Below are positions 1 to 55,712 of a stretch of 64,000 bases of DNA, one piece after another. The stretch is taken from positions 166,718,001-166,782,000 of the forward strand of contig OZ024743.1 in the NCBI GenBank assembly GCA_964016885.1, written 5' to 3'. Made by a program: the position numbers and the translations under genes. Under the pieces are notes generated by a model. That model searched no databases. It had not been told where the DNA came from and saw only the letters and a list, made by a program, of their open reading frames with translations. Position 1 is the stretch's first letter, and every line of letters begins with the position of its first letter. The stretch comes from Eledone cirrhosa. Its lineage: Eukaryota.

Positions 1-1812
1 AGGTGTTAGAGTATTTACACCAAATGGATCCCGACACCCGAAGGGATAACAGATATGCTTTCAGCCTAGATGTGGTCGCTCTGTACACCTCAGTCCCGGC
101 GCTCCCGGCCATTGATAATACTGACGGAACGTGTCCAGTCTACCAACCTACACTGCTTTGGGCTCACCCCCACTGACATCCACCAGTTCCTATCTGTTGT
201 CGTTGACAATACCTATTTCAATTTTTTCGACCACACATACCGGCAGACCTCAGGGATATCCATGGGTCTGTCAGGTGTGCTAGCGATCTTGTATTTGGAC
301 AGCCTAGAACGCAAGGCACTCAACACCTGCCACTCCACCGCTGTTGTCTTCTGCTCAAGATACGTGGATGACATACTCATCCTCATATCTTCCTAGGAGA
401 TGGCGAATGAGATTTACGAGACATTCAGCAATACAGGCGAGAGTATTGACGTGAGCATTGAGCACCCCAATGACGACAGATCCCTTTCCCTCCTCGACTT
501 TCTAATCAACATCACGGAACAGGAAGAGATCAACACCAACTTTTACCGCAAGGTGGCCTGCAGGGACTTGTTCATCCACTACAAATCTGCCCTCCCTAAC
601 AATGCTAAAAGAGGGTACATCACGAACGTGATCACGCAGATTAAAAATAGATGCAGCAATCCCGTGAGTAGTGTCACCCACACCAAGCGATTCCACAGGG
701 TGCTGGAGACGAATGGATACCCAACATTATTTACAAACAGAGTAAGGGACACCAGACACAAGTGGCAGAGAAACACAAAAGGTCAGTGCTTCTTTAAGAT
801 CCCGCACCTGGGCGAAAAAACCACCGATGCTATTCGCAGTGCCATACGGAGGGAGGGCCTTGATATCCACTTGGTCCACTCAAGGCCCTCTCTATGGAGA
901 TGCCTCTCCAGGAAACCTGACAAATCAGTTGATGCGTATTCCCTCAGCAACTGTCCAATACGTCAGACGAACTGTTGCTTACACACGTCTGTCATATACA
1001 AGATCGAATGTGGCAAGTGTAATGAATTCTATATTAGTAGCACCATCCGGCCACTACATGTCCGGATCAAGGAACACATCAACTTCTTTCCGAAACACAT
1101 AATCAAATGCGGAAACAAAGACAGAAGGCCCATTGTCACAGTGTTAGCGACGGAAAGCAACGTTGGCACTTTAAGGATAAAGGAGGAACTCTGGATCAAA
1201 CGTCTCAGGCCACAAATCAATAATCGATCCAACAGAAGTGAGACAAGATGGCTGGTGTAAACAAATGGAACAACAACAACACACAGTGACAATCGAGCGA
1301 TTGTTATTGTGTGTATATCGTGTCCACTACCCACTGAGTGACAGACAACAGACAGGCAGACTACTATCACCATGCCTGCCACTGACCTCAAAACATAAAG
1401 ATTTGACAGCGATGATGCGTACACACTGACCCACCACCGCCCCACTACTCTAGTATAGAAGAACTGCCTTGAACTTTATCTGACTGCAGCTATTCCGCGT
1501 GCGCACGTGCCCGATAGAGTATTTCAGTTGTATGTACACGATAAACAGCGGAGGCCATGTGTTGTCCTTCTCCGACACAACTTTTTCCCCTAGGAAAATC
1601 CCCAGTTAATGGATACGAAATCCGAAATATAGGGTCTATTAAATCGCTTCCAAGGTAACTCTATCTCGTGTTATTTTTTACACTTTTCCTACATTCTTTT
1701 ATGCTCTCTACGTCTCTTTCTATGCTCCCTCTTACACCTCTCTCTCATTACCACCTGATTCTGTTACCCGGAGATTTACCTATTTGCATTGTTGAGGCTT
1801 CCAAAAAGACTA
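1..1812 (+). mobile_element. Penelope-like element, 3' part (RT + C-terminal GIY-YIG endonuclease, disrupted) with 3' tail
   Basis: ORFs 70-396 and 400-1260 are in one frame, split by a TAG. They carry YRQTSGISMG and SRYVDD (RT), then VIYKIECGKC..FYISST..RIKEH..E..WIKRLRPQIN (GIY-YIG). The tail is homologous to 46260-46540. Confidence 0.92.
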
Positions 1813-1825
1813 TTTATATATATAT

Positions 1826-3003
1826 ATTGTTATACTTTGGGAGGGTCACGTTGCCAATAACAACACGCGCACCTGTTGATTTTCACTTCAATTTATTATA
1901 AATTTCCGGTTGGCTGGTTGATTCGACGACCGGAAGGTTGTTTATATATTGTCAAAGCTCTTTTGTCACACATTCTGTGACCTCCTCAGTCACTAGGTTT
2001 TTATTTTGTGTTTCTCCTTTGTTCTGTCCTACACCATCTTGCTTTTGTTACATACATGTGTGTGTTTTTATTTATTTGTCACTCATTAGTTGTTTGTTCT
2101 ATCTGTGTGTGTCTGATTTGTTTTATTAGTTTGGTTTTGGTGTGTGTCTGTATGTCTTTATTTTGTCCTTAATTACTAGTTGTGATGTTGCTATTCCATT
2201 CATGTTTTCTGTTTAATTTTGGTTGGAGTTCGTTTATGTTTGTTGCCTCTGTGATTTGCCTGAGCATTGCATCTTTCTGTGTGTGGATATAATTTTTATC
2301 TCTATGTTCTCTGTGCCCCTATGTTCTATTTTGGCATGTTGGTAGAGTACTGATGAGTTTTTCCCATCCTGGAGTTCTCGCCAGTGTTCACTTATTCTTT
2401 CTCCTATGCTATGAGCTGTTTCATCTACGTATGTTATGTTATTATTCCTACACTGACCCTCAGTACATGTTATGCTATATACTACATTCCCAGTGTTGCA
2501 GTTAGTATGTGGGCTTAGCTTGCAGACTATGCATTTCCTATCAGCACAAGGTGATCCTTGAAATGGGGATGTTTTACTAATTAGGGTTTTTATGGTTTTT
2601 ATGGGAATACTTGGTCTTTTAACATCACAACTAGTAATTAAAGACAAAATGAAGACATTCAGACACACACAAAAACCAAACTAACAAAACAAATCGGACA
2701 CACACAGATAGAACAAACAACCAACTAGCGACAAGTAAATAAACACATAAATAAATGAAAACACACACCGGGATGTAACGACTGCGCAAATTAAGCACAC
2801 AACACACAACACACAACACGCAAAAAGAAGATGGTGTAGGACAGAACAAAGGAGAGACACAAAATACAAACCTAGCCACTGAGGAGGTCACAGAATGTGT
2901 GACAAAAGAGCTTTGACAATATATAAACAACCTTCCGGTTATCAAACCAACCAACCAACTGGAAATTTATAATAGATTGAAGTGAAAACCAACAGATGCA
3001 TGT
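1826..3003 (-). mobile_element. PLE 3' fragment (GIY-YIG end + tail) with inverted copy of the tail (2620-3003)
   Basis: ORF 2234-2668 has CIVCK..CNTGNVVYSITC..YVDET..ERISEH. 2620-3003 is a reverse-complement copy of about 1870-2195. The same family occurs at 52555-53130. Confidence 0.8.
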
Positions 3004-3159
3004 TTTATATATATATATATATATATATATATATATATACACATACTTCGTTTTTGAATTTGTGAGTGTATATATATATATATATATATATATATACATA
3101 CTTCGTTTTTGAATTTGTGAGTGTATTTATATATATATATATATATATATATATATATA

Positions 3160-3750
3160 TACAAGTTAATATAAATTAATATATGATAAACACCTAAGTG
3201 TTTGCATTGTAAAAGACAAAAGTTAGCTAGAATGAAACAAACTAATTCAAATAAATATAGCCTGCCTGTATCGATTTAAAAAATAATAAATCAATATACA
3301 CAAACTCATATTATATACGTGCGTTTGTGCTCGTAAACCAGACCTTCAAAATTTTTTCGAGGTGAAGTAACCTAATTTTTCTGGGTACCTATTGATAAGC
3401 ACAGAAAATTGATTATTTCTCTTTTATACCATCGTTTGCGAAACCTATTTTGATTTTGATTTTGATTGATCTGCGGAAAAGGTTTGAATTTTAAAATTTA
3501 AATTTGTCTAGGTACCACGGCTATTTGCCAATATGAGTTTGTGTATATTGATTTATTATTTTTTAAATCGATACAGGCAGGCTATATTTATTTGAATTAG
3601 TTTGTTTCATTCTAGCTAACTTTTGTCTTTTACAATGCAAACACTTAGGTGTTTATCATATATTAATTTATATTAACTTGTATTGCACGGCTCAGAAATG
3701 CTTCTTTCTTTGAGCTAATTAATTGTAAATGACTCTTTGAGTGTATACTC
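3160..3750 (+). repeat. Asymmetric inverted-repeat (fold-back) insertion in (TA)n
   Basis: 3160-3312 is an apparently perfect reverse complement of 3530-3682. The right arm continues about 70 nt further. Flanked by (TA)n. Confidence 0.85.
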
Positions 3751-3754
3751 TAAA

Positions 3755-54002: not shown

Positions 54003-54065
54003 TATTCAGTGGTGACAGTCAAGTTTGCAATTTTCAACTGTAATCAGATGGCTAAAATCTGTACC

Positions 54066-54182
54066 TTATATACAGTAAAAAGGGGCTACAGAATGCTAAA
54101 TTTTGCAAACTGTATTTCAACCAATCGGTGTGTGGTTTCACTAGATTACTAAAGCTGATTGGTTTAGGCGTCACGATTGGTT
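54066..54182 (-). promoter_or_regulatory. Putative Pol II promoter in PLE pLTR
   Basis: TATATAA at 54066-54072 (minus), CCAATC boxes at about 54121, 54157 and 54175, and a TGACG half-site at about 54168. Confidence 0.55.
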
Positions 54183-54960
54183 GAGCATGTCTAACGACTT
54201 CTATTTGACCCTATCCAAAGCATCAATTGTTTTGCTACTTTTAGAAATGATGAAAATAGTATTTTCTAGGGTTTTTATAAAAAAATCTTCAGTAATCATC
54301 AATATCAACATCACTTTTATTATTATTATTGTTGTTAGTGGTGGTAGTCGACATGGTCGTAGGCGTAGTTATAGTAGAAGTAATACTCTTAGCATTATTA
54401 TTGTTCATTTAGCTTGGGTTGTAATTTATCAATAAAATTCTTTTCTTTAATTTTTCTCTTGATTTCACTTGGGCTGTGTAGTTTCTAGAATGGAAATATT
54501 ATAAATATTTTCTGACCACATGTTGCTAAATGGTTATATATATATATATATATATATATATATATATATATATATATATATATATATATATATATACTGT
54601 ATATATATATATGCTAAACCTGGATTTTATATGTTCTGGCTTGTTAATTTATTAACCCGCCATAGAACCACATTGGCATACGGTTGGATAATACTTGTAT
54701 CCCTATATGTACTTTTTACACGTAGAAACACATACTTTATTATTATTAATCTCCCCTAAGGTTGAGATAACACTTGGTCGTTTGAACTGCTGCTATTTCT
54801 AGTGGCAGGACATTGACCTGTCCACCCTGCCTTCTGTCTTTGCACACGGCACTAGACAAAATTGTGTCTTTCATCCTTCACTCTCATCTGGGAACAGTTT
54901 TGTATGGCGTGACTTTGTGATTTAAACTCGGGAATTTTATATTCTCCGAGCGAGAAGAAC

Positions 54961-55038
54961 CTTCTGAAGAGAGTCACCTTCTCAATGGAAATCCGCTTGG
55001 ATTATCCGTTTATTTTGAGACTTGAAACCGCGGTAAAG
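54961..55038 (+). ncRNA. Type-I hammerhead ribozyme
   Basis: ctt-CTGAAGA-gagtc..gactt-GAAA-ccgcgg-TA-aag, with palindromic stem III and extended stem II. Confidence 0.8.
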
Positions 55039-55134
55039 ACACATATAGTAAGTACAGCGAATTTTTAAACATTTATTTTAAAACTTTTTCTCTATTTGCT
55101 AGATCTGGATTTTATATATATATATATATATATA

Positions 55135-55712
55135 AAAACAAATAACGAAACGAAATTAAATTTCGTTTCGTTTGTAACTCACTTTTGTATGACTGACGCT
55201 TAAACAATTAAGTTAAAAATGTACATCCACATATGTATACTGAAATACTAGTATGCATATGAATACACACACGTGTACATATGTAGATGTACCGAGTTTT
55301 TCACTGGACACTTTACTGTGAGTGTTCAGCTATTCTGTATGTAAACACACAGACAAACCGGTTTTTAGAGTCATACTGGTTTTCGAGGAAACACCTTTCC
55401 TCTATTCTCCAGAAAGCCAGACAGGAATATTGGACTAGTTTCGATGTTGTTACATCTCATCAGCAATATTTACCTATCCTCCGGCCTTTCTAGAGAATCG
55501 TAAAAGCACATATCGTTATATGCTTTTTCTATGAAAATTAGTAGTGGGCAGACTAATTTGCATAGAGCGTTTACATACAGAATAGTTGAACACTCACAGT
55601 AAAGTGTCCAGTGAAAAACTCGGTACATCTACATATGTACACGTGTGTGTATTCATATGCATACTAGTATTTCAGTATACATATGTGGATGTACATTTTT
55701 AACTTAATTGTT
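55135..55712 (-). mobile_element. Asymmetric fold-back insertion carrying an HHR in its spacer
   Basis: Arms 55203-55345 and 55569-55712. The left arm extends about 70 nt further. (TA)n flanks. Confidence 0.85.
55426..55470 (-). ncRNA. Canonical minimal type-I hammerhead ribozyme
   Basis: aatattg-CTGATGA-gatgt-aaca-acatc-GAAA-ctag-TC-caatatt: perfect 7-bp stem I, perfect 5-bp stem II, GUC triplet. Confidence 0.93.

Follow-up and report, generated by a model that had tools for sequence, protein, structure and literature searches.

Palindromic hammerhead motifs in an Eledone cirrhosa locus as likely remains of Penelope-like elements and retrozyme-like repeats

Introduction

A 64,000-nt stretch of the 3.0-Gb Eledone cirrhosa assembly (contig OZ024743.1; "the window" denotes this stretch at full length) is packed with repeats, including microsatellites, fragments of long interspersed nuclear elements (LINEs), as well as several Penelope-like element (PLE) fragments. 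A first-pass annotation singled out 16 sites as a battery of unrelated minimal hammerhead ribozymes from PLE pseudo-long terminal repeats (pLTRs), with each family using its own palindromic stem III as a dimerisation code. The locus therefore raises the question of whether these motifs form a local array, what carries them and what their palindromes do. Palindromic stem III and dimer cleavage at PLE ends are already known from published work (PMC3088659, PMC4209133; these, like PMC6765202, PMC7229834, PMC8557442 and 10.64898/2026.07.22.740005, are cited for the excerpts available). From sequence comparison we consider it quite likely that the window holds PLE and retrozyme debris at genome-average density, whose motifs would work like the published dimeric hammerheads.

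In this model, the window would consist of the 5'-truncated, often inverted ends of eight PLE families and of two retrozyme-like repeats inserted in (TA)n tracts, and the type-I motif of each end would likely cleave only as a double hammerhead formed by two copies in a tandem transcript. The core and stem II of copy A would act on the cleavage site of copy B; as judged from model geometry, A15.1 of copy A would pair with U16.1 of copy B, and the 5' stem I strand of A would read the 3' stem I strand of B. Stem III and stem I would both be intermolecular, and partner choice would depend on both stems and on proximity in cis.

Results

Hammerhead motifs of the window

All 16 sites mapped to a type-I hammerhead motif or to a decayed copy of one (36614 lies inside the motif at 36600-36695), and nine of them have a broken or altered core. 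For counting we used an energy-based descriptor (CUGANGA, a stem II that can fold and is no longer than 110 nt, GAAA, U-H and stem I, with stem III content ignored), which replaced first strict descriptors that had missed sites with a G-U-rich stem II; the null for the window was 100 local dinucleotide shuffles. The motifs stood clear of these shuffled controls. With a stem I of at least 4 bp, six matches were found (cores 35595+, 44819+, 51732-, 53608+, 53997- and 55463-), against a mean of 0.29 and a maximum of 2 in the shuffles. Lowering the limit to 3 bp gave eight, against 0.47 and a maximum of 2, adding 54964+ and 30329+, the latter inside a LINE and a probable chance match. The CUGANGA...GAAA...UH core on a three-way junction was found at seven window sites by descriptor, and also at 51148, where stem I is 1 bp. 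An Rfam scan of the window returned a single hammerhead match, HH9 at 55411-55481, whose 34.2 bits lie below the gathering score of 52. The motifs are as follows.

35587..35651, + strand: type-I hammerhead, CTGATGA core 35595; stem I 8 bp; stem III A-TATGTA-T; predicted cut after A35643; PLE pLTR family
44811..44881, + strand: type-I hammerhead, core 44819; stem III A-TGCGCA-T; predicted cut after A44873; 3' pLTR of a PLE with ORF fragment 42816-43841
51670..51740, - strand: second intact TGCGCA-family copy, core 51732
42179..42231, - strand: defective TGCGCA-family copy, core 42223; lacks GAA and the 3' arm of stem II by deletion; lies inverted at the flank of the PLE ORF
51146..51177, + strand: minimal hammerhead, CTGAAGA core 51148; extra A before stem II; stem III A-CG-T; stem I 1 bp
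53604..53720, + strand: hammerhead, core 53608; 90-nt stem II; stem III A-CAATTG-T; GUU site 53716; pLTR of a young PLE
53964..54002, - strand: hammerhead, core 53997; U10.1-U11.1 mismatch; stem III A-GTAC-T; CUU site; pLTR of a 4.2-kb PLE
54957..55042, + strand: hammerhead, core 54964; 53-nt stem II; stem III A-CCGCGG-T; erosion has left 3 bp of stem I, against 7 bp in copies of the family
55426..55470, - strand: canonical compact hammerhead, core 55463; stem I 7 bp, stem II 5 bp, stem III A-CTAG-T; GUC site 55433
1600..1634, + strand: variant-core scaffold, core 1603 (CAGTTAA here, CAGTTGA in the family); stem III A-TA-T; 3' of PLE ORF fragment 3-1257
46442..46475, - strand: variant-core scaffold, core 46472; CCC-CAGTTGA-T-GGAT/ATCC-GAAA-TA-TA-GGG; 3' of PLE ORF 47004-48944
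1951..1993, - strand: GAAC/GAGC-family hammerhead, core 1989; G12-to-A at CpG; PLE ORF fragment 2276-2605 upstream
2875..2917, + strand: inverted partner of 1951, core 2879; G12-to-A at CpG
52703..52742, - strand: GAAC-family copy, core 52738; three core bases deleted
52877..52919, + strand: inverted partner of 52703, core 52881; G12-to-A at CpG
36600..36695, - strand: U3-A8 core variant TTGAAAA, core 36690; long stem II; 5-bp stem III with 9-nt loop; GATA for GAAA; PLE pLTR family
55858..56093, both orientations: inverted pair of truncated CAATTG-family halves, GAAA at 55922- and 56023+, without a CUGANGA core

All seven stem III palindromes quoted by the annotation are present as given. Its wider statements held in part. 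At 51147 the core supports the canonical fold; stem I does not, being 1 bp here and mostly no longer than 2 bp across 14 genomic copies. Nearly all sites were said to have a palindromic stem III, which fails for the GAAC/GAGC family and for 36614, whose 5-bp stem III with its 9-nt loop folds as a monomer. Nor are the flanks unrelated throughout, as 44819/51732/42223, 1951/2875/52703/52877 and 1600/46442 each belong to one family, and the 35595 and 44819 families have stem I in common. The cores at 1600/46442 (CAGUUGA) and at 36614 (UUGAAAA with GAUA) depart from the canonical one, and we read these sites as homologous scaffolds, not canonical hammerhead members.

Density in the genome

The density of these motifs is that of the genome at large. 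Our genome sample comprised 99 stretches of 10 kb (L094-L192; 990 kb) at round-number positions on large scaffolds and contained 113 matches, or 1.14 per 10 kb (bootstrap 0.77-1.58). The window, with six matches against an expectation of 7.3 for 64 kb (P(6 or more)=0.54), is thus no local battery. Shuffles of the first 590 kb of the sample gave 1-3 matches against 62 observed. Extrapolation yields about 340,000 canonical-core motifs in the genome (230,000-470,000), a rough estimate because the descriptor misses an array of 311-bp units with a CGCG stem III in L116. Stretches richer in (TA)n carry more motifs (rho 0.59, n=59), sampled 10-kb blocks hold up to 5-6 matches, and the window motifs group locally because its 35-56 kb part is TA-rich (6.7% vs 4.4%).

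Grouped without regard to stem III or core, the 113 sample matches fell into 39 families. Stem II exceeds 40 nt in 34 of the 113, with a maximum of 107, and N17 is A in 72, U in 32 and C in 9. Genome-wide, exact-pattern matches numbered 15,050 for the 35595 family, 5,379 for 53997, 2,346 for 51148 and 1,377 for 44819 (exact 23-mer); first-look candidates, 40 of which were scored per family, numbered 880 for 55463, 1,044 for 53608 and 2,063 for 54964. Within the window we found no intact hammerhead pair of the same family on the same strand and, because of this, its copies are likely inert fossils.

Penelope-like elements as carriers

A PLE reverse transcriptase (RT)-endonuclease open reading frame (ORF) lies in sense 5' of the motif in eight of ten families. 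The proposed pLTR origin is borne out for these eight; the other two are retrozyme-like tandem repeats. Counting copies with a PLE ORF at most 1.5 kb upstream gave 11/19 for CAATTG, 30/56 for CAGTTGA, 9/30 for GAAC, 5/37 for TGCGCA, 11/26 for CG and 13/37 for U3A8/C3A8, numbers that include some neighbouring unrelated ORFs. At targeted loci, a PLE ORF accompanied the motif in 3/3 cases for GTAC and in 4/5 for TATRTA (the 35595 family). The ORFs and retrozyme-like units of the window that bear on this are listed here.

42816..43841, + strand: 3' fragment of the PLE ORF of the TGCGCA family, 80-86% identical to the ORFs of L278-L280
47004..48944, - strand: PLE RT-endonuclease ORF of the CAGUUGA lineage, frameshifted; Pfam RVT_1; 86% identical to the L217 ORF
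54608..55134, + strand: 484-485-bp retrozyme-like repeat, one non-coding unit, carrying the CCGCGG hammerhead
55132..55712, - strand: young 465-bp retrozyme-like element (element 55132-55570, inverted 5' piece 55569-55712), inserted in (TA)n

The distance between ORF and motif is about 250 nt in the GAAC family, 400 nt in 1600/46442, 1 kb at 44819 (from the fragment at 42816-43841) and 1.1 kb in the 36614 family, the motif always lying 3'. Three families were seen as direct repeats around an ORF. Those of the 51148 family are 4.7 kb apart and enclose a PLE ORF with RT, a CxxC linker and a GIY-YIG-like end; those of the 53997 family are 4.2 kb apart, with a PLE ORF between the copies in L332 and L333; and direct CAGUUGA-family copies 3,333 bp apart in L217 flank a 670-codon open frame with matches to RVT_1 (1.3e-8) and, just under the cut-off, GIY-YIG (3.4e-4), homologues of which carry both domains. 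For the 53608 family, whose copies are 99-100% identical, a 639-aa open frame ends 418 nt upstream in L055; it has no Pfam match and was assigned to PLEs by motif and similarity only. A 3.9-kb spacing of this family in L045 was rejected as a full element, being a duplicated (TA)-rich block. Partial copies inverted at the 5' side occur both in the window and in fetched loci; the ORF at 47004-48944, for example, has an inverted truncated copy at 49244-49968.

Retrozyme-like tandem repeats as carriers

The two remaining families occur as tandem units with one hammerhead each, spaced 463-465 bp for the 55463 family (L009, L014, L017) and 484-485 bp for the 54964 family (L072, L073, L091). Their longest ORFs starting with Met are 68 and 78 aa, their GC contents 0.37 and 0.36, and no PLE ORF was found upstream of the units in 56 copies of the 465-bp family or 15 of the 484-485-bp family. 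Predicted circles of both units are self-paired (z of about -9 and -5.7 against a crude shuffle). In stem II of the 465-bp unit, a compensatory A-U to U-A change at 55455/55444 was seen in contigs from runs X6 and X5. As judged from DNA, both repeats fit non-LTR retrozymes. Like PLE insertions, the 465-bp family also shows 5' inversions and a fixed 3' end that passes into (TA)n, and in a target-site duplication check the ends of both families ran into (TA)n tracts.

Runs X4 and X5, labelled as two other organisms, each contained one 495-496-nt contig of the 465-bp unit, which we did not use as evidence; the X5 contig wraps round, and a contig of the CAGUUGA pLTR was absent from both, where contigs could have been dropped by a filter. 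A third retrozyme-like array, with 311-bp units and stem III A-CGCG-T, lies at L116:8749-9682.

Pairing of stem III between two copies

In the 39 families of the 990-kb sample we scored the inner stem III pairs, defined as positions enclosing fewer than 3 nt and so unpairable within a monomer. Of these, 53/68 were Watson-Crick, against 19.7 under the null and a maximum of 36 in 20,000 shuffles, in keeping with the dimer pairing that the annotation had proposed; in the 13 multi-copy families the figure was 23/26, against 7.8. This excess points to selection for the pairing of one copy with another. Folding stem III as a hairpin within a monomer carries a penalty of +1.9 to +6.0 kcal/mol; homoduplexes lie between -14.1 and +1.6 kcal/mol, most being favourable. 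The published picture is similar, since the excerpts of PMC4209133 describe a palindromic stem III, many families per genome, inactive monomers and low dimer activity, the legend of Fig S8 in PMC3088659 lists varied palindromes and PMC6765202 summarises the same double hammerhead.

An 8-nt palindrome, CTAATTAG, occupies stem III in family R3 (10/113 sample matches) and was also seen in L021, L032, L045 and L046.

Lineages with altered cores

The CAGUUGA core differs from the canonical one by U4A and A6U. Its CAGTTGA pattern matched 2,961 times, against 4 matches with the canonical core, and the form with TA in stem III 977 times. The four canonical-core relatives have homologous flanks, with a related PLE ORF end upstream in two. 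A core-blind search found 19 copies, of which 15 could be parsed (11 CAGTTGA and 4 one base off; none canonical); the four left unparsed through changes in stem II or GAAA read CAGTTGA in three cases and CAGTTCA in one. A flank tree of 66 rows, 48 of them different, set the canonical four apart from all variant copies, with support of 100/99. The subfamilies form a ladder of loop II changes, ending with a stem III that goes from TA to TATA in the youngest, and the core stays constant throughout. As the closest sampled copies are 84-96% alike, the lineage is not brand new. At 46442 we preferred the CAGUUGA reading because it aligns base for base with the canonical relatives; the alternative core UUGAUGG was rejected, as it removes G8/G9 from stem II and leaves a bulged stem I.

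Published pairwise mutagenesis found low activity for double mutants in the CUGA region, except for a C3-G8 swap (PMC9901934), and CAGUUGA is therefore predicted to be weakly active or dead. It is likely a weak or non-cleaving core in a retained scaffold whose element was still amplified. A U4A/A6U or CAGUUGA core was not found in the literature searched, although Lunse et al. 2017 may list such variants; the lineage appears to be a new variant and worth an assay. A bolder possibility, which we regard as doubtful, is that CAGUUGA is a working element, in which either the U4/A6 swap would be tolerated with the PLE protein and a partner copy, or a non-cleaving dimerising scaffold would be needed for replication, with stem I and stem III acting as a two-lock partner filter.

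The 36614 family also has altered cores. UUGAAAA, the known U3-A8 swap, gave 483 matches and its sister form CUGAGAA 1,453 pattern matches; the latter has C3 opposite A8 in all 100 matches listed, a deletion of N7 being the alternative reading. The 9-nt loop of this family holds the palindrome GAGCTC, like a kissing loop, in the window (36600-36695 (-), 41716-41824) and in L229 and L261-L276.

Alternative explanations

Several observations weigh against the dimer reading. The families are related, so that there were fewer evolutionary events than the count of inner pairs suggests. In the GAAC/GGAC family, with 16/113 sample matches, pairing of stem III is poor even in a dimer (+1.4 to -1.7 kcal/mol), and stem III of 36614 is of the monomer type, which means that the dimer rule is not universal. 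Plain decay does not explain why the stems persist in the CAGUUGA lineage. Finally, the 35595 and 44819 families cross-pair over 9/8 bp in stem I and differ by one mismatch in stem III, the pattern of a selected code.

A selected code, in which each family has its own palindrome to avoid cleavage by others and families sharing CAATTG cross-activate, is nevertheless improbable in our view. In its favour, the 39 families of the 990-kb sample show many palindromes side by side, and the 35595 and 44819 families have a common stem I but not a common stem III. The palindromes are not private, however: TATATA is the main form in 3/39 families and TATGTA, CTAG and CACTG in 2/39 each, and in fetched loci GAAACAATTGT is followed by 20 different 7-nt 3' flanks, some of which are variants of one family or chance. 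A shared CAATTG does not predict cross-activation either, because stem I is also intermolecular and, computed on 15 family representatives, that of 53608 pairs over 4-6 bp with itself but over only 2/2, 2/1 and 0/0 bp with three further CAATTG families; the other CAATTG sites of the window (38877-, 55922- and 56023+) are truncated halves without the CUGANGA core. The two CTAG families likewise cross-pair over 3/2 bp in stem I, against 7 and 6 with themselves. Among 741 family pairs, 11 are compatible in stem III, and in 9/11 of these stem I, too, cross-pairs over 4 bp or more in one direction or both, as common descent would predict for kin; palindromes tended to follow descent in the family comparison. 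Even between 35595 and 44819 stem III barely discriminates, since the stability of their heteroduplex (-1.6 kcal/mol) is close to that of the 35595 homoduplex (-2.2 kcal/mol), and trans pairing between families is unlikely to matter given the low activity reported even for cis tandems in the excerpts of PMC4209133. Palindrome diversity is best read as lineage drift under a constraint of self-complementarity, not as a selected one-per-family code.

Alternatively, the hammerhead could be a folded 3' landmark, a protein-binding, dimerising or RT-initiation scaffold with secondary or protein-assisted cleavage, whose palindromes are kept for RNA-RNA pairing. We hold this to be possible, if rather unlikely. 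It accounts for two lineages that kept their stems and reached thousands of copies with a core that should, by prediction, be impaired (CAGUUGA, 2,961; CUGAGAA, 1,453), and for the youngest CAGUUGA subfamily, which lengthened its stem III from TA to TATA and kept the palindrome; moreover, in PMC11167929 cleavage required the PLE protein, cleavage was not required for insertion in vitro and hammerhead mutants had no effect on it. Most families keep a perfect catalytic core, however, which argues for selection on catalysis, and the 30-nt conservation across subfamilies could stem from a few master elements. This possibility is compatible with, and does not exclude, the dimeric hammerheads proposed here. 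That the window is instead a host-co-opted cluster, a functional ribozyme array processing a host transcript, is in our judgement extremely improbable. Six strict matches do fall within 35.6-55.5 kb, but strands are mixed, the core is broken or altered at 9/16 sites, every site is the end of a multi-copy element, the window total falls short of the expected number and sampled 10-kb blocks reach 5-6 matches as well.

The CAATTG group itself includes further variants, as fuller copies in L046-L053 read CTGAAAGA, with one extra core base like the A6a insertion in the excerpts of PMC3088659, and related loci have CCGANGA (U4C) cores.

Other elements in the window

A two-ORF LINE is present at 7654-13329 (+), 19672-25280 (-) and 27133-31201, one copy being inverted and degenerate; the part at 19672-23259 holds an intact-looking 1,195-codon endonuclease-RT-zinc finger frame, with its upstream ORF at 23127-25280. 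RT elements ending in (AAT)n lie at 15931-19056, 25388-26485 and 6431-7072; Pfam finds RVT_1 only, and their C terminus, with its CCHC, presumably also carries a restriction-like endonuclease motif. Rfam microRNA (miRNA) matches in the window were rejected as inverted-repeat hairpins. Near-perfect long hairpins from PLE 5' inversions (52552-53078, 41964-42043 and 41716-41824) are sub-threshold as miRNA precursors; they could be a source of double-stranded RNA.

Discussion

The Eledone motifs resemble the minimal hammerheads of PLE pLTRs, as described in the excerpts of PMC4209133, in their type-I topology, their place in a pLTR 3' of an RT and GIY-YIG ORF, their short palindromic stem III, the many families per genome, the prevalence of solo or inverted truncated copies, the extra base before stem II in several families and the U3-A8 variant. 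They differ in the often very long stem II, in an N17 that is mostly A or U and in the CAGUUGA and CUGAGAA cores, which set them apart from the PLE hammerheads in the published excerpts. The roughly 3x10^5 motifs in 3.0 Gb exceed the counts in the excerpts for Xenopus (9,000) and axolotl (126,247 canonical), obtained with different descriptors. Varied palindromes in stem III or loop III that pair fully in the dimer only are likewise described for newt satellite 2, ASBVd and Aedes in the excerpts of PMC3088659.

The 465-bp and 484-485-bp repeats share with the metazoan non-LTR retrozymes (excerpts of PMC7229834 and 10.64898/2026.07.22.740005) their non-coding tandem units with one type-I hammerhead each, a GC content of 36% and a self-paired predicted circle. 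Their lengths lie above the 150-450 bp of PMC7229834 and inside the 51-972 bp of 10.64898/2026.07.22.740005. Unlike those retrozymes, the Eledone repeats, known here from DNA, resemble PLEs in their fixed 3' ends, their 5' inversions and their insertion into (TA)n. In the literature searched, part of it as excerpts, we found neither palindromes treated as a family code nor tests of hetero-dimers, and no report of a hammerhead in octopus or any cephalopod.

The Eledone genome appears unusually hammerhead-rich, and descriptors limited to a short stem II would likely miss the third of the motifs in which that stem is long. What hammerheads do for PLEs is called unclear in the excerpts of PMC8557442. 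If the U4/A6 swap of the CAGUUGA lineage were indeed tolerated, it would break the core rule drawn from published mutagenesis. The CAGUUGA lineage beside its canonical relatives, together with the lineage that has C3 opposite A8, thus offers a natural experiment on whether catalysis, dimerisation or neither is under selection in these elements.

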